Source of the DNA: Pseudoalteromonas tetraodonis
GTDB taxonomy: Bacteria > Pseudomonadota > Gammaproteobacteria > Enterobacterales > Alteromonadaceae
Assembly: GCF_002310835.1 (NCBI RefSeq)
Contig: NZ_CP011041.1
Span: 180,001 to 212,000, forward strand
DNA: 32,000 bases
Direction: 5' to 3'
The notes under the pieces were generated by a model. That model was given only the letters and a program-made list of their open reading frames with translations. It was not told where the DNA came from and did not search any database. The translations under genes and the position numbers were made by a program. This document shows positions 16,177 through 22,760 of this stretch, one piece after another (the stretch's first letter is position 1; each line of letters opens with the position of its first letter).

Positions 16177-17298
16177 CTAAAGCTCAAAGACGTTAGTAAA
16201 AAATTTATACAGCTCGGTACCTTGATTCACACTCGCTGAGGCAAAATGCAATATCGCAATTGCATCGAGATCAAAGCTTAGAGTTTGCAGCGGTTGTTCG
16301 CTTAAATAGCGCTCCATGCGCAGTATTTTAGCAATGGGTTCTCCAGCTTTAACATGCCCGCCAAGAGGTGCTAGGTATTCGACCATGCCACCCATGGGGG
16401 CGTAATAAGCAATATAATCATTTAGTTGGCAGCCATATCTTGTCATCAATTTTGGCTTGTAGGGGGCATCAACAAATACTTGCTTATGATTTAAATAACT
16501 TAAAATACTATTGGCATCGTCTAGTGCCGCGCTTAAATCGATTTTTTCTTGGCTGCCAAGCTCTACCGTAAAGGCTTCAACTTGCACGTTAAATTCACGC
16601 CCTTGCTGAGCAAGTTGCTCACTAAGCTGCCACCATGGACAAAAGCTTGCTTCATCCATTGCGCCATCAAAGGCATTAGGAATAACCAGCACATGGGGAA
16701 TATTAAAGTAACGCGCGCTATCGGTCGCATACTCAGGGCAATATAAGTGCTGACTAGAAATAGGGCCGGTGTGTAAATCTAAAACTATATCTGCTTGATG
16801 CGCCAATTTTTGTAAGTTTAGCGCAATCCGTTTCCCCGTTGTTAAACGATAATCAGGGCCGTTGAGTTGTTGCTCAACGTCATTAATTAACGCGGCTTTA
16901 AAGGCTGTTTTCAGAATCTTATCATCGGCATCGCTGAACTGCTGTGCAAACTGGGTCGCCAGTTTATTATTGCAGTGATACATGCGATTCCAATTAGTCC
17001 CCGTAATGGGATCGAATCGGCCAAGGGTAAATTCCCCCGACTTTTGATTACAGCCAATGGGGTTAGCGTAAGGAACTAAGGTAATATCACCTTTTAAATT
17101 AAGTGTTTTTAGTTGCTCAAGTAATTGGTAAATTACCGCGTTGCCTTGCACTTCTGCGCCATGCATATTTGCTTGTACATACACACTTGGGCCGGTGCCA
17201 TCGCCTTTTAAACGATACACAGGAATAGTCAGTGGTAGTCCGTTTGCGACTTCGCCAACTACAATGTTTTCTTGGCTTATAGCTATGGTGTTATTCAT
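16177..17298 (-). CDS. Succinylglutamate desuccinylase/aspartoacylase (AstE/AspA) family zinc hydrolase
   Basis: Zn-ligand contexts typical of the family are present (NMHGAEVQGN and LDLHTGP). I prefer the start MNNTIAIS (17298), 5 nt after the upstream stop. The track start at 17346 would overlap the upstream gene by 43 nt. Confidence 0.8.
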   Translation of the reverse strand: MNNTIAISQENIVVGEVANGLPLTIPVYRLKGDGTGPSVYVQANMHGAEVQGNAVIYQLLEQLKTLNLKGDITLVPYANPIGCNQKSGEFTLGRFDPITGTNWNRMYHCNNKLATQFAQQFSDADDKILKTAFKAALINDVEQQLNGPDYRLTTGKRIALNLQKLAHQADIVLDLHTGPISSQHLYCPEYATDSARYFNIPHVLVIPNAFDGAMDEASFCPWWQLSEQLAQQGREFNVQVEAFTVELGSQEKIDLSAALDDANSILSYLNHKQVFVDAPYKPKLMTRYGCQLNDYIAYYAPMGGMVEYLAPLGGHVKAGEPIAKILRMERYLSEQPLQTLSFDLDAIAILHFASASVNQGTELYKFFTNVFEL

Positions 17299-17303
17299 CT
17301 TTT

Positions 17304-18509
17304 TTATCTCAAGTAGTGGCTTGCATCTTCTGCTTGTCGCACGCAACTCAATACGCCATTGTGGATAACATATTCACCGGCCAGCTCATGGCATAAAAAG
17401 TACGGCATACTTTCGGTAAAACCGTAGGCACCGCATTGACTAAATACTAGCCAGTCTTGCTCATTTAAATCACTGGGTAATTGGTGCTCTCCTAAGCAAT
17501 CAAGTGCAGTACATAAGGGGCCGTATAGGCTCATTGCTTGATTTGCTGCGTTTGAATCTCGTAATAAACGCGCAGGGAAATCTTGACTGGTGACCGCAGG
17601 GCGCAATAAATGATTAATGCCGCCGCTCATAATCACCTGTTGTTGGCCGTAATTTAGTTTACGCTCAACAACAGGTGTGGCGTAGTGGCCGCATTCGCCT
17701 ACAGCGTAGCGACCTAGTTCCATCCATAGCTCAGTAACCCCCGCATCGCATTTAATTTTTGCAAGCGCCTCTATGAGTGCATCCCAACTTAGAGTGGGCG
17801 TATCAAGCGTATAGGGAATACCTAAACCACCACCTAAATCCAGCACCTTGAGGTTAATATTTAAATCCTCAGCAAGTTGCCTTAACGGCGTAATCATTTG
17901 TGTCCACAGCTCAGCGAGTTTGTCGCTGCTAAGCATGTTGCCCCACTGAAAAATATGCAGACCGTCAAAATTAAGTGCACAGTAGTCACTGGTATTTAGC
18001 GCCTGCCACTCGTCGCACCCTAAGCCAAATGGAGTAAGACTATCGCCCCCTAGCGGGTTTTTATCACCCTCGGGCCAGCGTAATTGTACCCTTAATAAAA
18101 CCTGCAACTGGCACTGCTGAGCAATCGCTTGTTCGTTGAGCCAACGTACCTGATTGAGACTTTCGGCCACAAAGGTACGCACGCCACGCGCAATAAAGTG
18201 CTTAATTTGTTTAGGGCTTTTTGCAGGCCCCGTGTTGAGCACGCGTTCACTGTTAATTCCTTGAGCAAGGACTTGCTCAAGCTCGCCTTTACTGGCGACA
18301 TCAAAGTTAAAACCAGCGTTATTTAAGCGTTGGATCACGCTAGATAACGGGTTCGCTTTAACTGCATACCAGAGTTTTACCTCGGTTTGTGCCACTAAAC
18401 GCGTTAAATGTGTGTTTAGTGAATCAAGATCATAAACAAAAAAGGGCGTATCAAGCTCAGTTGCTAGCTTATCAATAGCGGTTTTAACGGGCGTGCTCAA
18501 AAAGGTCAT
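17304..18509 (-). CDS. PLP-dependent group IV decarboxylase, diaminopimelate-decarboxylase-like
   Basis: It has the PLP-lysine motif YAVKANP, then GGGLGIPY, ELGRY and GPLCT..D, which align by eye with E. coli LysA. Its start overlaps the dapD-like stop (ATGA-type coupling). Confidence 0.78.
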   Translation of the reverse strand: MTFLSTPVKTAIDKLATELDTPFFVYDLDSLNTHLTRLVAQTEVKLWYAVKANPLSSVIQRLNNAGFNFDVASKGELEQVLAQGINSERVLNTGPAKSPKQIKHFIARGVRTFVAESLNQVRWLNEQAIAQQCQLQVLLRVQLRWPEGDKNPLGGDSLTPFGLGCDEWQALNTSDYCALNFDGLHIFQWGNMLSSDKLAELWTQMITPLRQLAEDLNINLKVLDLGGGLGIPYTLDTPTLSWDALIEALAKIKCDAGVTELWMELGRYAVGECGHYATPVVERKLNYGQQQVIMSGGINHLLRPAVTSQDFPARLLRDSNAANQAMSLYGPLCTALDCLGEHQLPSDLNEQDWLVFSQCGAYGFTESMPYFLCHELAGEYVIHNGVLSCVRQAEDASHYLR

Positions 18510-19249
18510 TAACGTAAAACCTCTTCAAGCAATAATGACGCATCACTTTGCTCGTCACGGTATTTAACAATTAACGCACACGACATGCTTAAGCCTTGCT
18601 CGCGCGCCCAATCGTTTGACGCAGGGCGAGATCCAGGGATCACAATCGCGTATTCAGGGATTGCTTCGCCTTTATCAAGCTGGCGCTCATTTACGCAGTC
18701 ATAAACAGGGATGGTTGCAGATAAGCGAACACCTGGGGCAAGTACCGCGCCTTTTTTAACTACCACGCCTTCAACAATCACACAGCCTGCACCAATGAAT
18801 GCATCGTCTTCTATGACCACAGGGCTGGCACCAATGGGCTCAAGTACTCCGCCTAATTGTACCGCTGCGCTTAAATGCACATTTTTACCTACTTGAGCAC
18901 ACGACCCTACGAGCGCGTGGCTATCTACCATAGTGCCCTCGTCAATAAATGCACCAATATTTACGTACGCAGGTGGCATAATAATAGTGCCTTTGGCAAC
19001 ATGTGCACCACGGCGCACACTTGAACCACCGGGTACCATGCGAACGCCTGCTGTGGCTTCAAAGCTTTGCGGCGCTAAGTTATGTTTATCAACAAAACCG
19101 CCAGCAAACTCGGTGTTTTGACCGTTTTTAAAGGCTTCTAAAATGCCTTGCTTTACTTCTACGTTAGCGTGCCATTGGCCGTTTTCGTCTTGTGTTGCTG
19201 CGCGAACCGCGCCCGTTTCTAAATTATTTAATAGTTCTAACCAGTTCAT
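18509..19249 (-). CDS. dapD: Tetrahydrodipicolinate N-succinyl(acyl)transferase, DapD-like (short form)
   Basis: The block PPAYVNIGAFIDEGTMVDSHALVGSCAQVGKNVHLSAAVQLGGVLEP is near-identical to the E. coli DapD hexapeptide core. It lacks about 30 N-terminal residues relative to E. coli DapD. Confidence 0.82.
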   Translation of the reverse strand: MNWLELLNNLETGAVRAATQDENGQWHANVEVKQGILEAFKNGQNTEFAGGFVDKHNLAPQSFEATAGVRMVPGGSSVRRGAHVAKGTIIMPPAYVNIGAFIDEGTMVDSHALVGSCAQVGKNVHLSAAVQLGGVLEPIGASPVVIEDDAFIGAGCVIVEGVVVKKGAVLAPGVRLSATIPVYDCVNERQLDKGEAIPEYAIVIPGSRPASNDWAREQGLSMSCALIVKYRDEQSDASLLLEEVLR

Positions 19250-19264
19250 TATAAAAACCTGTAT

Positions 19265-20149
19265 TTAATGCCAAGATAAAATGGTGTTGTTTGCCGATGA
19301 AATGTCATCTGTGTGTGTCAGCTCAAGGTGTGTTAAAGGTGGGCGTAAATACGGACTGCCAATACGCCCTTGTAAATGCATTAACACTTTGACTGGGATA
19401 GGGTTGGCTACTGAAAATAAGCTATTGATAGCACTAGACCACTGGACAAAAAGATTAGGGTGTTGGCCGCTTAAACTGCGCTTTACAAACTCATGGGTTT
19501 GCACTGGCCATGCATTGGCTGCAACCGACACTAAACCTTTTGCACCTGCTTGGGCAAAATAAGGCATGAGGGCATCGTCACCACTAAAAATGGCTAGTTC
19601 AGGCGCTGCTTGTCGATAGGCTTCAAATTGAGAGATAGAGCCACTGGCTTCTTTCAGTGCCCATAAATTTTTATGTTGTTTGAGGTTTTCAATGGTTGCA
19701 ATGGGAATGCTAACCGCACTACGTCCTGGTACGTTATAAAGCATACAAGGATGAGAACTGGCATTGAGTAAGCTTTCAAACCAATGCGTTTGCCCCACTG
19801 CACCGGGTTTGGCATACAAAGGCGAGCCGAGTAAAAAACCATGGATAGGCAGCTGGTTGCAGTAATTAACCCATTCAAGCTGTTGCTTTAAGTTACTACC
19901 GCCTACCGCAACCATAAGGGGGACGCTCGGCTGTAATTGGCAGACATGCTCTACGATGGCTTGCTGTTCTTTGAGGGTAAGGGCTAACCCTTCGCCGGTG
20001 CTACCTAGCAGTAAAATGCCATTGTTAGCGGCTTCTTGTTCGGCCACCAAGGTGTCTAAGGTTGCGTAATCAACTAGGCCATTTTGATCAAATGGGGTGA
20101 TCAGCGCAGTCCATAAATGGAAATTGTTAATATTGAAGTTGTTGATCAT
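19265..20149 (-). CDS. dapA: 4-hydroxy-tetrahydrodipicolinate synthase, DapA-like
   Basis: DHDPS/NAL family motifs are present: GSTGEG, LYNVPGRS (with the Arg used for aspartate-semialdehyde binding in DHDPS), the Schiff-base Lys in ALKEASG, and NPIPVK. Confidence 0.82.
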   Translation of the reverse strand: MINNFNINNFHLWTALITPFDQNGLVDYATLDTLVAEQEAANNGILLLGSTGEGLALTLKEQQAIVEHVCQLQPSVPLMVAVGGSNLKQQLEWVNYCNQLPIHGFLLGSPLYAKPGAVGQTHWFESLLNASSHPCMLYNVPGRSAVSIPIATIENLKQHKNLWALKEASGSISQFEAYRQAAPELAIFSGDDALMPYFAQAGAKGLVSVAANAWPVQTHEFVKRSLSGQHPNLFVQWSSAINSLFSVANPIPVKVLMHLQGRIGSPYLRPPLTHLELTHTDDISSANNTILSWH

Positions 20150-20251
20150 CTCTCACGAACTTATAGGGCATTCGTCGAGTTTTTGGCGGGTATTTAGGAT
20201 GCCTGACTCTTTGAATGTGTTTATAATTCGAAGAGCGAATGGGCTTAAATA

Positions 20252-20450
20252 ATAGGGCGCACGGCCTTATTATACTAAGACCAGAAGCTCTCCACCAAAT
20301 ATGTTATTGGTGACAGTCGCTAGGATTCAGCCTAGTCGCCCGAAGCAACCTTTCACAAAAAAGTGTTACCTCTCGGCGTTAATTCCCCTCACGTATGCTC
20401 AATGGAGTTTGCGCTCCTAACATACGCTACCTGAATAACGCACCTCTTCC
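20252..20450 (-). promoter_or_regulatory. Lysine riboswitch (L-box) aptamer in the leader of the dapA-like operon
   Basis: The minus-strand RNA contains AGAGGUGCG, then GCGUAUG..GGAG..CUCC..CAUACGU GAGGGG, then ACGCCGAGAGG, then CUAGGCUGAAUCCUAG, then CUGUCACCAA...UUGGUGGAGAGCUUCUGG, then GUGCGCCCU. The order and wording match the conserved L-box blocks of E. coli lysC and B. subtilis lysC leaders as I remember them. Confidence 0.85.
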
Positions 20451-20514
20451 AGCCCTTTGCACTTGCTATTGAAAAATCAATCAGCAAATACAATGTAATA
20501 GGGTAAGTGTGGCG

Positions 20515-20544
20515 ATTAAACCACTTTAGCCGTCTAGGTGTCAA
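20515..20544 (-). promoter_or_regulatory. Candidate sigma-70 promoter for the riboswitch transcript
   Basis: The minus strand reads TTGACA-18 nt-TTTAAT, about 60 nt upstream of the aptamer 5' end. This rests on sequence pattern only. Confidence 0.3.
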
Positions 20545-20643
20545 GTGACTAAATATAGATAGATTCATCCTGATTGACAGTTATTACGTATTAGCTGCTT
20601 TTCTCGTACACTAGTACTATTGTCGAAGTAAGGTATTAAGCAG

Positions 20644-21342
20644 ATGGAAAAATTTAGTGATATTTATAAGCGAGCGGTAGAGCGAAAGGGCTCTGAAAAA
20701 ATGCTTAAGTTGTTACTCGCAAAACCTTTATCAACAAAGCAACTCGTCACATTAAGTGATGATGATTGGCTAGAAGAATTTACTCGGAAAGTTTTTCAAA
20801 GTGGTTTTTATTGGTCGGTGATCAACAGTAAGTGGGCCGGATTTAGAGAGGTTTTCTGGGATTTCAATGTTGAAAAACTATTGATGATGCCACCGGATAT
20901 GCTTGAGCAAAAAGCCAGTGATGAGCGGATTGTACGCAACTATAAAAAAGTAAAAACTATTACTGAAAATGCGTATATGATCCACGAAGTTGCAGAGCAA
21001 TACGGCAGCTTTAGTGAGTTTATTGCTAACTGGCCAAGTGAAGATATTATTGGCTTGTGGGCGTATTTAAAAAAGCATGGTGCAAGGCTTGGTGGTAATA
21101 CCGGCCCTTATGCGCTGCGCGCCTTAGGAAAAGATACTTTTTTACTTTCAAGAGACGTAGAAAGCTATTTGCGTGCCCATAAAATTATAGATGGCGGATT
21201 ACAAACTAAAAAGTCACTAAGTGCGGCGCAGGCATTCTTTAATGAACTGCAGCAGCAAAGCGGCTTAAGCATGCAAGAGCTAAGCTTAATTGTCGCTTAT
21301 GGTGTAGGTGACAATCGCGTAGGTATCAGCCAAAAACAATAG
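20644..21342 (+). CDS. DNA-3-methyladenine glycosylase I (Tag)-like helix-hairpin-helix protein
   Basis: The central region aligns by eye with E. coli Tag (QSGFYWSVINSKWAGFREVF vs QAGLSWITVLKKRENYRACF; IVRNYKKVKTITENA vs IIRHRGKIQAIIGNA). The Tag N-terminal Zn and catalytic residues are not evident. Confidence 0.6.
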   Translation: MEKFSDIYKRAVERKGSEKMLKLLLAKPLSTKQLVTLSDDDWLEEFTRKVFQSGFYWSVINSKWAGFREVFWDFNVEKLLMMPPDMLEQKASDERIVRNYKKVKTITENAYMIHEVAEQYGSFSEFIANWPSEDIIGLWAYLKKHGARLGGNTGPYALRALGKDTFLLSRDVESYLRAHKIIDGGLQTKKSLSAAQAFFNELQQQSGLSMQELSLIVAYGVGDNRVGISQKQ

Positions 21343-21350
21343 GATTAAAC

Positions 21351-22760
21351 ATGAAATTAGTGCCAAGGTATACCGACATTGGTGAGGGGTTTGCAATTAG
21401 CGATCATCCAGCCAAGGTGACAGCGCCACAGTTATTGTTATGGAATGAGCCCCTAGCTAAGCAATTTAATATACAGGTGAGTGCCGATTCTCGAGCAAAT
21501 ATATTTAGCGGTAATGAACCCCAAGCGATTTCTGCGGTGGCACTGGGATATTCTGGTCATCAGTTTGGTCACTTTTCACCGCGACTAGGGGATGGTAGGG
21601 CACATTTGCTCGGTGCGATTAGCGATGATAAAAATCAGCTTTGGGATCTGCAATTAAAAGGCGCTGGTGCTACGCCATTTTCGCGCGGAGGCGATGGCCG
21701 CTGTGCATTAGGTCCAGCTATTCGTGAGTACGTAATGAGCGAAGCTATGCACGCGCTTGGCATTCCAACAACGCGTTGTTTAGCCGTGGTTGGCAGTGGC
21801 GAAACCGTTTATCGCAACCCACCTCAACCAGGTGCTATTGTAACCCGACTCGCCAGCAGTCATATTCGGGTGGGCTCGTTTCAATATTTAGCCACTCAAG
21901 GTGACGTTACTAGCCTAAAAAACTTAGCCGACTTAGCCATTCAAAGACACTATCCCGAGATTAACAGCACTGGCGCTCAGCGTTATTTAGATTTTTTAGC
22001 CGCAGTGATAACCAATCAAGTTAACTTAGTCGTAAGTTGGATGAGGGTGGGGTTTATTCATGGGGTAATGAATACCGACAACACCTTAATTAGTGGTGAA
22101 ACCATAGATTACGGTCCATGTGCCATGATGAACCAGTTTGATTTTGATACCGTGTTTAGCTCTATTGATAAACAAGGGCGTTATGCGTTTGGTAATCAGC
22201 CAAACATGGCAAGTTGGAACTGTGCCCGCTTAGCAGAGAGTCTAATAGCGCTGATCAGTGACGATGACGAGCAAGCGGTGGCAATGATGACGCCTTTAAT
22301 TGAGGGCTTTTCAACGCAATTTAATCAGCAATTTAGCGCTATGTGGGCACAAAAGTTAGGGCTAACAATAGCTGATGATAAAGATAATGAGCTGGTGGGG
22401 GAGTTACTAGGGTTATTAAAACAACACCAGCTTGATTATACCAATACTTTTAATGCACTCACTGAGTCGTTAAATGGGCAAGCTGAAATACCATTAGCAC
22501 TTACCTCTTGGGCACAGCAATGGCAAACACGAACTAATGAGCACAGCTATCAAGTGATGCGACAAGCCAATCCGAGCGTGATCCCACGTAACCATATTAT
22601 TGAAGATATTATTACGCAGTACACTACGCATGGGGATAGTGAGCTACTCAGTCGTTTTAGCAAAGTGATGTCGAGCCCTTACACAAGCCATGCGCAGGCC
22701 ACTGAGTTTCAAACGCCGCCCGAAGATGATAAGAATTATCGTACTTTTTGCGGTACTTAA
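21351..22760 (+). CDS. selO: Protein adenylyltransferase SelO (YdiU)
   Basis: At 469 aa it is full-length collinear with the SelO/YdiU family (GHQFG, LGDGRA, GAG.TPFSR.GDGR, HGVMNTDN). Confidence 0.92.
   Translation: MKLVPRYTDIGEGFAISDHPAKVTAPQLLLWNEPLAKQFNIQVSADSRANIFSGNEPQAISAVALGYSGHQFGHFSPRLGDGRAHLLGAISDDKNQLWDLQLKGAGATPFSRGGDGRCALGPAIREYVMSEAMHALGIPTTRCLAVVGSGETVYRNPPQPGAIVTRLASSHIRVGSFQYLATQGDVTSLKNLADLAIQRHYPEINSTGAQRYLDFLAAVITNQVNLVVSWMRVGFIHGVMNTDNTLISGETIDYGPCAMMNQFDFDTVFSSIDKQGRYAFGNQPNMASWNCARLAESLIALISDDDEQAVAMMTPLIEGFSTQFNQQFSAMWAQKLGLTIADDKDNELVGELLGLLKQHQLDYTNTFNALTESLNGQAEIPLALTSWAQQWQTRTNEHSYQVMRQANPSVIPRNHIIEDIITQYTTHGDSELLSRFSKVMSSPYTSHAQATEFQTPPEDDKNYRTFCGT

Follow-up and report, generated by a model that had tools for sequence, protein, structure and literature searches.

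The lysine riboswitch has been known as an RNA class since 2003. In Escherichia coli, the riboswitch of lysC acts on translation as well as on RNase E cleavage and Rho termination (PMC10946432; Caron et al. 2012, cited there), and a segment of its expression platform is double-stranded in the ON state, where it belongs to an anti-P1 stem, and lies exposed in the OFF state (PMC10946432). The lysC-type L-box of Bacillus subtilis carries an aptamer of the same family. Closest to the present locus, a 2017 paper (PMC5584792) lists a lysine riboswitch before a Pseudoalteromonas operon given as "dapA-dapD-lysA-hypothetical1-hypothetical2" and states that this operon riboswitch is confined to Pseudoalteromonas. 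The DNA that we analyzed (the window, 32,000 nucleotides of Pseudoalteromonas tetraodonis) holds the same RNA family before the same operon in the same genus and represents the published case in another strain. Riboswitch and operon have been known since 2017, and, with both the RNA class and its occurrence before the Pseudoalteromonas operon on record, the locus carries little weight as a discovery. It does serve as a positive control, the riboswitch and its platform logic being recognizable from raw sequence without tools. Beyond that paper, we describe the expression platform, the promoter, and a 5' stem-loop; the new points are minor and comprise riboswitch-operon units in Colwellia and Thalassotalea, the conservation of the 5' stem-loop, and a predicted terminator that is kept in distant congeners.

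The aptamer and the first gene of the operon are located as follows (window coordinates).

20277..20456, minus strand: lysine riboswitch aptamer (RF00168, by covariance model), with P1 pairing 20452-20446 and 20287-20281, extendable to 20455 with 20278
19265..20149, minus strand: dapA (4-hydroxy-tetrahydrodipicolinate synthase), first operon gene (TIGR00674, 261 bits, cutoff 206)

A sequence-only reading of the window had called a lysine riboswitch at the head of a dapA-like operon and had named a covariance-model comparison with RF00168 as the check. That comparison returned a full-length minus-strand match at 20456-20277, which covers all 182 model positions (1-182) and, with 102.5 bits (E = 1.9e-26), far exceeds both the gathering threshold of 30 and anything expected by chance. 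The tertiary elements (the K-turn in P2 and the L2-L3 loop-loop contact) enter implicitly, through this alignment to the model. The call is upheld by this score and by compensatory changes, which among 20 sequences affect 21 of the 50 predicted aptamer pairs, in P2, P2a, P3, and P4; P1 and P5 are almost invariant in this set, and the five-helix junction P1-P5 is maintained. Alignment to the consensus and motif positions also located AGAGGUGC, GCCGA, CUGUCAC, and GGAG.GCU, the conserved sequences of core and junction. The operon part of the call is borne out by the TIGR00674 assignment of dapA, on the same strand and with 127 nt between the aptamer end and its ATG, and by the arrangement in relatives: in 80 of 80 related Pseudoalteromonas loci, the aptamer lies upstream of an operon of four genes, dapA and dapD together with those for a decarboxylase and an AstE-like deacylase. 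Beyond the limit stated in PMC5584792, Thalassotalea and Colwellia also have the riboswitch-operon unit, at 88.6 and 79.8 bits, respectively. That a lysine riboswitch controls the dapA-led operon is, in our view, almost certain. A decaying relic without regulatory function is hard to reconcile with a full-length, high-scoring match, an invariant core with compensated stems, and retention in all 80 congeners and two other genera; nothing was found in its favor, and we consider it extremely improbable.

At the level of individual blocks, all L-box sequences listed by the earlier reading were found on the minus strand in the order given. The role assigned to P2 (GCGUAUG...GGAG/CUCC...CAUACGU, followed by GAGGGG) is correct by the covariance-model alignment, and those assigned to the block ACGCCGAGAGG, to the P4 hairpin CUAGG-CUGAA-UCCUAG, and to CUGUCACCAA...UUGGUGGAGAGCUUCUGG (P5 plus 3' core) were likewise correct. 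The extent of the aptamer and its P1 had to be revised. Instead of 20450-20252, the covariance model gives 20456-20277, and P1, previously read as AGAGGUGCG/GUGCGCCCU, is placed by the covariance model and RNAalifold at CUGGAAG (20452-20446)/CUUCUGG (20287-20281), a helix that can be extended to 10 bp (GGGCUGGAAG/CUUCUGGUCU), the consensus P1 length across relatives. AGAGGUGCG (20447-20439) comprises the end of P1, then J1/2, and then the start of P2, and GUGCGCCCU (20262-20254) lies outside the aptamer as the loop and 3' arm of the hairpin that follows. Pairing of the two appeared in the unconstrained MFE, though only as a nonconserved alternative, and was rejected; GUGCGCCCU is not kept in the distant clade.

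The E. coli lysC aptamer scores 99.5 bits against the same model, compared with 102.5 bits for the window. A blastn search of E. coli genomes with the window aptamer gave no match, because the aptamers have only short motifs in common, and the lysC leader was taken by coordinates for comparison. The K-12 leader contains all of the motifs that the earlier reading had given for it (GGCUGAAUCC, UGUCACC, and GGUGGAGCACUUCUGG). It shares with the window GGCUGAAUCC, UGUCACC, and GGUGGAG..CUUCUGG, the lack of an intrinsic terminator, and a C-rich, G-poor platform. Its platform has a similar UGCGCCC...CCGCUCUUCC segment (..GCGCCC...CGCUCUUC..) able to pair with the aptamer (anti-P1), and in both leaders a downstream helix is predicted to mask the start region. 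The switch in the window is most likely lysine-OFF, like that of E. coli lysC. As a whole, an L-box in the dapA operon leader that works as such a switch is the best explanation of the locus and a probable one. The two systems differ in that the E. coli riboswitch controls lysC and that of the window a four-gene dapA operon, and in that the window has a 5' stem-loop before the aptamer and, after it, a conserved hairpin that is predicted to be a terminator in some congeners.

Upstream of the aptamer, the leader begins with the following features.

20515..20544, minus strand: candidate sigma-70 promoter, TTGACA (20544-20539), 18-nt spacer, TTTAAT (20520-20515)
20497..20504, minus strand: ACCCUAUU, close to where the transcript is predicted to begin, conserved genus-wide as ACCC(U/C/G)AUU
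20457..20493, minus strand: 5' stem-loop directly adjoining the aptamer, 16 bp in the window, outside RF00168

The coordinates of the TTGACA-18-TTTAAT promoter proposed earlier were confirmed, and the candidate is conserved in 81 of 81 leaders examined, being exact in 39 and reading TTCAAT at unchanged spacing in the other clade. Its TTTAAT is preceded by TGG (extended -10 TGn), and a simple scan missed it because the -10 element has no A at position 2. From this conserved element, transcription would probably start near 20508. The conserved ACCCUAUU is identical in sequence to GCCCUAUU, the 3' arm of the hairpin that follows the aptamer. The 5' stem-loop of the window has a predicted dG of -16.9 kcal/mol (z -5.9); over 78 distinct flanks, its median length is 13 bp, with z < -2 in 86%, and in 70 of the 78 it ends 1 to 2 nt before GGGC, in widely divergent sequences.

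Downstream of the aptamer, a hairpin region offers several pairing partners.

20240..20283, minus strand: post-aptamer hairpin region (MFE fold and variants among relatives)
20282-20275, minus strand: segment A, GGUCUUAG, able to pair with B, the tail, or the 5' GGGC (extended P1)
20271-20263, minus strand: segment B, AAUAAGGCC, pairing with C
20258-20251, minus strand: segment C, GCCCUAUU, pairing with B
20248-20240, minus strand: U/A-rich tail, UUAAGCCCA, which can pair with A

The B:C stem shows compensatory changes (A-U to G-C in L042 and L044; A-U to U-A in L047), a reading made by eye and from per-sequence scans, the MAFFT alignment not being structure-aware in the B:C loop region. The lower stem involving the post-aptamer region is 99.4% paired. 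The sequence-only reading had seen no strong hairpin with a U-run between the aptamer and the ATG, and our scans agree: nothing terminator-like was found in this interval of the window, where the longest U-run is 3, and an intrinsic terminator in the window was rejected. In 36 of 81 loci, nearly all from the distant clade, the homologous hairpin is followed by 5 to 7 U and qualifies as terminator-like, as in L045 (ATAAGGC/GCCTTAT + CTTTTTT). In L045, moreover, the A:B helix (CTGGTCTTA/TAAGGCCAG) reaches into the P1 3' strand in a classic anti-terminator arrangement, and the distant clade thus has a P1/anti-terminator/terminator layout comparable to that of the B. subtilis L-box. These relatives speak for transcription attenuation at B:C (20271-20251) in the window too, in the style of the Bacillus L-box and with the GGUCUUA:UAAGGCC hairpin as anti-terminator. 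In the window itself, however, the stem has an A-C mismatch, the tail UAUUAUUUAAG has no U-run longer than 3 and so no U-tract of the Bacillus kind, and the U-runs are only 2 to 4 throughout the window's clade, all of which makes attenuation here very unlikely. The U-run at the homologous terminator position has decayed. Within one genus, the same platform is found with a terminator in one clade and with the U-tract lost in another, and this clade series provides a natural system for studying transcriptional/translational shifts of expression platforms.

Control of translation would instead involve three elements between this hairpin and the start codon.

20222..20241, minus strand: S1, switching strand CAUUCGCUCUUCGAAUUAUA, with CUCUUC (20235-20230) in its core
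20169..20217, minus strand: variable internal hairpin inside the S1:S2 helix, M1 CAUUC..AAAGAGUC paired with M2 ACUCGACGAAUG
20146..20165, minus strand: S2, translation-initiation region UAUAAGUUCGUGAGAGAUGA, including GAGAG (20154-20150) and AUG (20149-20147)

CUCUUC, GAGAG, and the ATG lie where they had been placed, and the suggestion that CUCUUC can pair both with the aptamer and with the start region stands by folding and conserved complementarity, with the amendment that the masking helix has 17 bp, not 5. This S1:S2 helix covers GAGAG and AUG and is part of the MFE structure for the full leader as well as for the aptamer-locked context. Locking the aptamer raises the predicted pairing probability of its core (CUCU:AGAG) in the window from 0.06 to 0.92; over 76 distinct leaders, the corresponding medians are about 0 (free) and 0.80 (locked). 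The S1 core GCUCUUCG is invariant in 61 of 61 distinct sequences, and the enclosed hairpin differs in sequence in most relatives, in which it carries UUCGAA repeats. Pairing potential is kept in 86.9% of cells for S1:S2, over the 61 sequences, and in 99.7% for the rod that S1 can form with the aptamer, compared with 29 to 56% for slid controls, a comparison biased in favor of a structure derived from one aligned sequence. Neither platform helix (S1:S2 or rod) showed covariation above shuffles, because the strands barely vary; support for both thus consists of conserved complementarity and thermodynamic prediction.

The predicted consequence for the start region was scored over positions -6 to +3, since the interval from -12 to +3 is too coarse, the left half of S2 being paired in both states. 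In the window, the unpaired probability falls from 0.55 with the aptamer free to 0.26 with the aptamer locked. Across 76 leaders, the means are 0.39 and 0.28, and the change reaches at least 0.2 in 17. S2 is often predicted to pair elsewhere, for instance with M2 or the coding sequence, and in the sub-clade L018-L027 it reads GUUGCAG, with a predicted S1:S2 core pairing of 0 to 0.08. GAGAG is unlikely to be a canonical SD, because it adjoins the AUG without spacing and is missing in one sub-clade. The earlier preference for translational control over attenuation gains from the missing terminator and the predicted masking of the start in the window, but the predicted opening is modest across the genus.

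On the basis of this modeling, we believe that a switch of partners that masks translation is the probable mechanism. Without lysine, P1 would remain unformed and S1 (20241-20222, core CUCUUC) would be held by the aptamer, leaving the GAGAG-AUG region more open so that dapA can be translated. With lysine, P1 (CUGGAAG/CUUCUGG) would lock and release S1, which could then join S2 (20165-20146) in the 17-bp helix and bury GAGAG and AUG. The C-rich, G-poor platform would also become single-stranded and, like that of lysC, may draw in Rho or RNase E. What we infer here comprises the lysine dependence, the choice of anti-P1 partner, the response of translation, and the involvement, if any, of Rho or RNase E. 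In E. coli, the sequestering pairing was read as the adjacent CCUUGUG:CACGAGG, whereas in the window it is the CUCUUC strand itself that would mask the start (S1:S2, 17 bp).

Possibly, the output lies mainly in the mRNA level, with lysine exposing the platform (about 20267-20190) to Rho and/or RNase E and the drop in translation being secondary. The platform is rut-like in composition (29 C versus 15 G), and C exceeds G by 10 to 20 percentage points from about 20267 to 20190. The mRNA level of E. coli lysC depends more on Rho than on RNase E (PMC10946432); by our own mapping, the lysC rut and RNase E sites fall in the S1-like segment, S1 resembling the lysC GUCUUCCGCUCUUCC, where this mapping puts RNase E Site1 (PMC10946432). 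The modest change in predicted start accessibility in many leaders points the same way. Against this, S1 is predicted to be paired with S2, rather than single-stranded, in the lysine-bound fold, and we regard a mainly mRNA-level output as rather doubtful. It is compatible with masking of the start, and the two are not mutually exclusive.

The partner-switching mechanism leaves two candidates for the lysine-free partner of S1, the 5' GAAGAG (20449-20444) and the 3' core UGGAGAGC (20294-20287). P1 itself is predicted at about 0 without ligand in all leaders. In the 3' option, the pairing of S1 with UGGAGAGC would grow, through UGG:CCA and CUUAG:UUAAG, to a long anti-P1 rod, and only this rod involves the tail (20248-20240) and the flanking G20236 and G20229. 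In the 5' option, S1 would occupy GAAGAG in the P1 5' strand. The sequence-only reading had named GAAGAG, and in the window it does win the co-transcriptional fold (0.41-0.43 versus 0.06-0.10). For window RNA transcribed as far as S1, the MFE includes it (P = 0.43 versus 0.06 for the 3' option), and the window is among the 12 of 80 leaders that favor it (0.41 versus 0.10). The E. coli lysC leader, for which an "anti-P1 stem" is described (PMC10946432), has the same GAAGAG and CUCUUC motifs. In contrast, the other 68 of the 80 related leaders favor UGGAGAGC (median P 0.65 versus 0.009 for GAAGAG), and with the aptamer 3' strand free, the probability of UGGAGAGC:GCUCUUCG has a median of 0.95 over 76 distinct leaders and is 0.88 in the window. 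The GAAGAG pairing comprises only 6 bp, cannot be extended, and is about 0 in every full-length ensemble, whereas the 3' option explains the complementarity of UUAAG(C/U)CCAUU(C)GCUCUUCG to UGGAGAGCUUCUGGUCUUAG over 16 pairs. In the Thalassotalea platform (CCCAGAGCUUCCC), inspection shows no CUCUUC and complementarity to the 3' strand only. When the states were forced on the full window leader, P1 gave -113.0, the 3' anti-P1 -115.6, and the GAAGAG anti-P1 -112.1, a spread of about 3.5 kcal/mol. That lysine-free CUCUUC pairs with GAAGAG (P1 5' strand and J1/2) instead of UGGAGAGC, mimicking the P1 3' strand, is therefore a tentative alternative to which we give the smaller share of our confidence.

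The remaining operon genes raise the question of what the riboswitch controls.

18509..19249, minus strand: dapD, short form (tetrahydrodipicolinate N-succinyltransferase; NF008808, 296 bits, cutoff 204)
17304..18509, minus strand: PLP-dependent decarboxylase, Orn/DAP/Arg fold, LysA-like (TIGR01048, 189 bits, below the equivalog cutoff of 298)
16177..17346, minus strand: AstE/AspA-family (succinylglutamate desuccinylase/aspartoacylase) deacylase, last conserved operon gene (PF24827)

The operon contains none of dapB, dapC, dapE, and dapF. Among solved structures, BtrK (1e-33) and 6knh match the decarboxylase better than canonical DAP decarboxylases do. The substrate of BtrK is an acyl-tethered amino acid, which it decarboxylates at the L-centre, and members of the AstE family hydrolyse N2-succinyl-L-amino acids. 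Conceivably, though we consider it unlikely, the operon does not simply duplicate the DAP pathway, and what the riboswitch controls is a variant of the late lysine pathway. N-succinyl-LL-DAP may then be decarboxylated to N2-succinyl-L-lysine, and desuccinylation of the latter may yield lysine, which, if true, would bypass DapE, DapF, and LysA. In a weaker version, the AstE-like enzyme may be a non-orthologous DapE. Our literature searches found no AstE-family enzyme in the DAP pathway, and the alternative DapE of GapMind 2026 is an unrelated amidohydrolase. The constant link of the riboswitch to an uncharacterized AstE-family deacylase and a BtrK-like decarboxylase marks both as candidate lysine-synthesis genes. 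DapA of the window is 98% identical to that of Pseudoalteromonas sp. 2CM28B. The AstE-like deacylase, whose gene is present in 80 of 80 loci, matches 3fmc and 3lwu at E about 1e-135; its homologs have 370 to 373 aa, and its true start probably lies downstream of the listed TTG.

The window certainly carries a lysine riboswitch aptamer. RF00168, the lysine riboswitch model, was the sole above-threshold match in a whole-window Rfam 15 scan, scoring 102.5 bits (gathering score, 30; E = 1.9e-26) across model positions 1-182 of 182. This full-length match bears out the sequence-only reading, which had called such an element and named this covariance model as the check; every one of its L-box blocks is present on the minus strand of 20000-20700, and the E. 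coli motifs it named are truly found in the K-12 lysC leader. Aptamer, P1 and downstream genes are as follows.

20456-20277, minus: lysine riboswitch aptamer (RF00168, 102.5 bits)
20452-20446 with 20287-20281, minus: P1, CUGGAAG paired with CUUCUGG (RF00168 structure line)
20149-19265, minus: dapA (TIGR00674, 261 bits, cutoff 206)
19249-18509, minus: dapD, short form (NF008808, 296 bits, cutoff 204)
18509-17304, minus: PLP decarboxylase, under the LysA cutoff (TIGR01048, 189 bits, cutoff 298)
17346-16177, minus: AstE/AspA-family deacylase (PF24827)

The roles given to the blocks agree with the RF00168 structure line for P2 (GGAG/CUCC), ACGCCGAGAGG, the P4 hairpin CUAGG-CUGAA-UCCUAG and CUGUCACCAA...UUGGUGGAGAGCUUCUGG, which comprises P5, the 3' core and the P1 3' strand, but not for the two strands proposed as P1. 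RNAalifold on 20 relatives lengthened the model's P1 to 10 bp (GGGCUGGAAG/CUUCUGGUCU), and 21 of 50 predicted aptamer pairs have compensatory changes on both sides. The segment GUGCGCCCU (20262-20254), put forward as the P1 3' strand, lies outside the aptamer; a counterpart in a distant clade that includes P. luteoviolacea, P. piscicida, P. phenolica, P. citrea and P. aurantia is, for example, CAGUUUGCCUUAU.

The link of the aptamer to the operon is equally certain. In all of 80 Pseudoalteromonas loci from a one-genome-per-species scan (DapA 66-96% identity), the aptamer precedes the ATG by 110-192 nt (nhmmer E <= 7e-20) and the four-gene order is kept. The riboswitch heads a same-strand, dapA-led operon as had been proposed; pldA is the next gene beyond it, and the window DapA shares 98% identity with its counterpart in Pseudoalteromonas sp. 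2CM28B. Riboswitch and operon were already known, since a paper (PMC5584792, PLoS One 2017; Table 1, Gammaproteobacteria section) lists a lysine riboswitch before Pseudoalteromonas 'dapA-dapD-lysA-hypothetical1-hypothetical2' and infers its origin within that genus; the window element is this known element, correctly called. We also find the unit outside Pseudoalteromonas: in Colwellia sp. 1_MG-2023, RF00168 (79.8 bits) is followed by DHDPS, DapD-like, decarboxylase and AstE-like genes, and in Thalassotalea sp. PS06 (88.6 bits) by only dapA and an AstE-like gene.

Comparison of 81 leaders gave the following layout of the expression platform.

20296-20276, minus: invariant GGUGGAGAGCUUCUGGUCUUA
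20271-20251, minus: hairpin with variable arms B (AAUAAGGC) and C (GCC(C)UAUU)
20248-20240, minus: U/A-rich tail UUAAG(C/U)CCA
20241-20222, minus: S1, the putative switching strand, invariant, CAUU(C)GCUCUUCGAAUU
20217-20169, minus: variable middle region
20165-20146, minus: S2, the start region, UAAGUUCG(UGAGAG / UAAGAG / UUGCAG / GUAGAG)AUGA

Changes in the B:C hairpin read by eye as compensatory (A-U to G-C in L042/L044, A-U to U-A in L047). A consensus scan of 19900-20800 found no terminator-like site, and the same scan applied to all 81 leaders flagged 36, nearly all from the distant clade, where 5-7 U follow the B:C hairpin (for example ATAAGGC/GCCTTAT plus CTTTTTT in L045, confirmed by the terminator scan). 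The U-run is just 2-4 long in the window's clade; the sequence-only reading was therefore right that a terminator is absent, and the window platform looks like a terminator that lost its U-tract. With the U-tract gone from the window's clade, both platform types occur within one genus. Terminator-like hairpins lie about 100-130 nt upstream of dapA in L040-L073 and other leaders (for example L045:5894-5923), and in the distant clade the hairpin before them, CTGGTCTTA/TAAGGCCAG, shares bases with the 3' strand of P1 in an anti-terminator-like manner.

How, then, might the window platform switch? The CUCUUC core of S1 had been noted as complementary both to GAAGAG on the P1 5' side and to GAGAG beside the AUG. 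Both complementarities are real: the first (20449-20444 with 20235-20230) amounts to 6 bp, and the second lies within a 17-bp S1:S2 helix over GAGAG and the UG of the AUG in the fold of the window leader. Folded from the aptamer 3' core onward, the RNA instead forms UGGAGAGC:GCUCUUCG stacked on UGG:CCA, CUUAG:UUAAG and the B:C hairpin. We folded 76 distinct leaders with the aptamer 3' strand either free or locked. The median probability of UGGAGAGC:GCUCUUCG with the strand free was 0.95 (window, 0.88), while that of the S1:S2 core was 0.80 locked versus about 0 free (window, 0.92 versus 0.06). Positions -6 to +3 were unpaired with a probability of 0.55 free versus 0.26 locked in the window, compared with genus-wide means of 0.39 and 0.28; the shift reached at least 0.2 in only 17 of the 76 leaders, since S2 pairs with other partners.

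In the lysine-free state, S1 may pair with either of two candidate partners. Pairing with GAAGAG, as originally suggested, is preferred over the aptamer 3' core by the window transcript up to S1 in its full 5' context (0.43 versus 0.06), but across 80 leaders the 3' core is favored in 68 and GAAGAG in 12, the window included (median probabilities, 0.65 and 0.009). Forced states of the full window leader span only about 3.5 kcal/mol (P1, -113.0; 3' anti-P1, -115.6; GAAGAG pairing, -112.1), and P1 has a probability of about 0 without ligand in all 80 leaders folded. Either partner would exclude the ligand-bound aptamer, and from these alternative pairings with aptamer or S2 we conclude that S1 is the predicted switching strand, as had been surmised. 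Pairing potential is kept in 86.9% of cells for S1:S2 and 99.7% for the rod, the long helix of S1 plus tail with the aptamer 3' end (slid controls, 29-56%). Because the strands hardly vary, neither platform helix showed covariation above shuffles; support for the platform model accordingly comes from conserved complementarity and from thermodynamics rather than from compensatory evolution. We consider a lysC-like translational OFF mechanism fairly probable.

As to the proposed masking of a Shine-Dalgarno sequence, S1:S2 is predicted to cover the start codon region, but GAGAG directly touches the AUG with zero spacing (20154-20147, minus) and is replaced by UGCAG in the sub-clade L018-L027, so that it is probably not a canonical Shine-Dalgarno sequence; dapA starts without a canonically spaced one. 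The S1:S2 helix would nevertheless exert its effect, by making the start codon region inaccessible. GAAGAG and CUCUUC motifs are also found in the lysC leader of E. coli, and our own mapping places the RNase E Site1 of that leader (positions 250-253) in GUCUUCCGCUCUUCC; the region around this site is described as double-stranded when the switch is ON, through an anti-P1 stem, and as exposed when it is OFF (PMC10946432). The window platform (20262-20160) is C-rich and G-poor (29 C versus 15 G; aptamer, 32 C versus 55 G), resembling the lysC rut region in composition alone, which is only a compositional hint of a role for Rho or RNase E.

Between S1 and S2, most leaders (L002-L038) have UUCGAA-type repeats. 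The arms of the middle hairpin resemble the flanking strands, M2 being similar to S1 and M1 to S2 (window, 20169-20217), so that a relay of alternative hairpins S1:M1, M1:M2 and M2:S2 is possible. One-sided A-to-G variants of M2 (CCGAAC, CCGGAC, CCGAGC, CCGGGC) all still pair by inspection with GUUCGG of S2. The middle segment of the window and L001 differs from that of other leaders. In the P. distincta/fuliginea group (L003-L006, L008, L009, L037), M2 and S2 are separated by an additional ~60-nt hairpin, UACCAAUU...AAUUGGUA, lying ~60-120 nt upstream of dapA and increasing the aptamer-to-ATG spacing from ~130 to ~191 nt with S1 and S2 intact.

Two further elements precede the aptamer.

20544-20515, minus: candidate promoter TTGACA-18-TTTAAT (exact in 39 of 81 leaders)
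20493-20457, minus: 5' stem-loop, 16 bp (dG -16.9 kcal/mol, z -5.9), directly abutting the aptamer 5' end

The promoter, proposed earlier, is supported by its conservation: the remaining leaders have TTCAAT at the same spacing, a TGn lies just upstream of the -10, and conservation extends to the 18-nt spacer, CCTAGACGGCYAAAATG, and to ACCC(U)AUU beyond the -10. A simple scan missed it because position 2 of the -10 is not the usual A. Everything between the -35 and about +12 (20497-20545, minus) is conserved genus-wide, exceeding the needs of a sigma-70 promoter; a regulator site may overlap it, or ACCCUAUU may be an RNA partner, being identical to the hairpin arm GCCCUAUU at 20258-20251. The stem-loop is outside RF00168, and in nearly all 78 distinct leaders it has a counterpart, unrelated in sequence, whose end lies 1-2 nt short of GGGC; mRNA stabilization and insulation of folding are possible roles.

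The operon lacks dapB, dapC, dapE and dapF. Its decarboxylase ('lysA') has BtrK as closest solved relative, which together with 6knh ranks ahead of canonical DAP decarboxylases. The product of the fourth gene closely resembles structural-genomics entries labeled 'succinylglutamate desuccinylase/aspartoacylase', and its family occurs widely in Pseudoalteromonas, Thalassomonas, Thalassotalea and Colwellia; a literature search turned up no publication that gives it a function in the DAP pathway. The operon may represent a variant late lysine pathway or contain a non-orthologous DapE, the simplest reading being a lysine-repressible set in which dapA and dapD are joined by a substitute for DapE and by a divergent LysA; a bypass through N2-succinyl-lysine is a speculative alternative. 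In the region 17277-17346 (minus), the AstE-like frame, from its listed TTG start (17346), overlaps the decarboxylase gene by 43 nt; homologs of 370-373 aa and PDB alignments beginning at residue 24 place the real start probably ~16-20 codons downstream. The divergent neighbor (20644-21342, plus; 232 aa) partially matches DNA-3-methyladenine glycosylase I (Tag) below threshold (TIGR00624, 38 bits, cutoff 232; Pfam Adenine_glyco over profile positions 24-116 of 177) and is followed by SelO (21351-22760).
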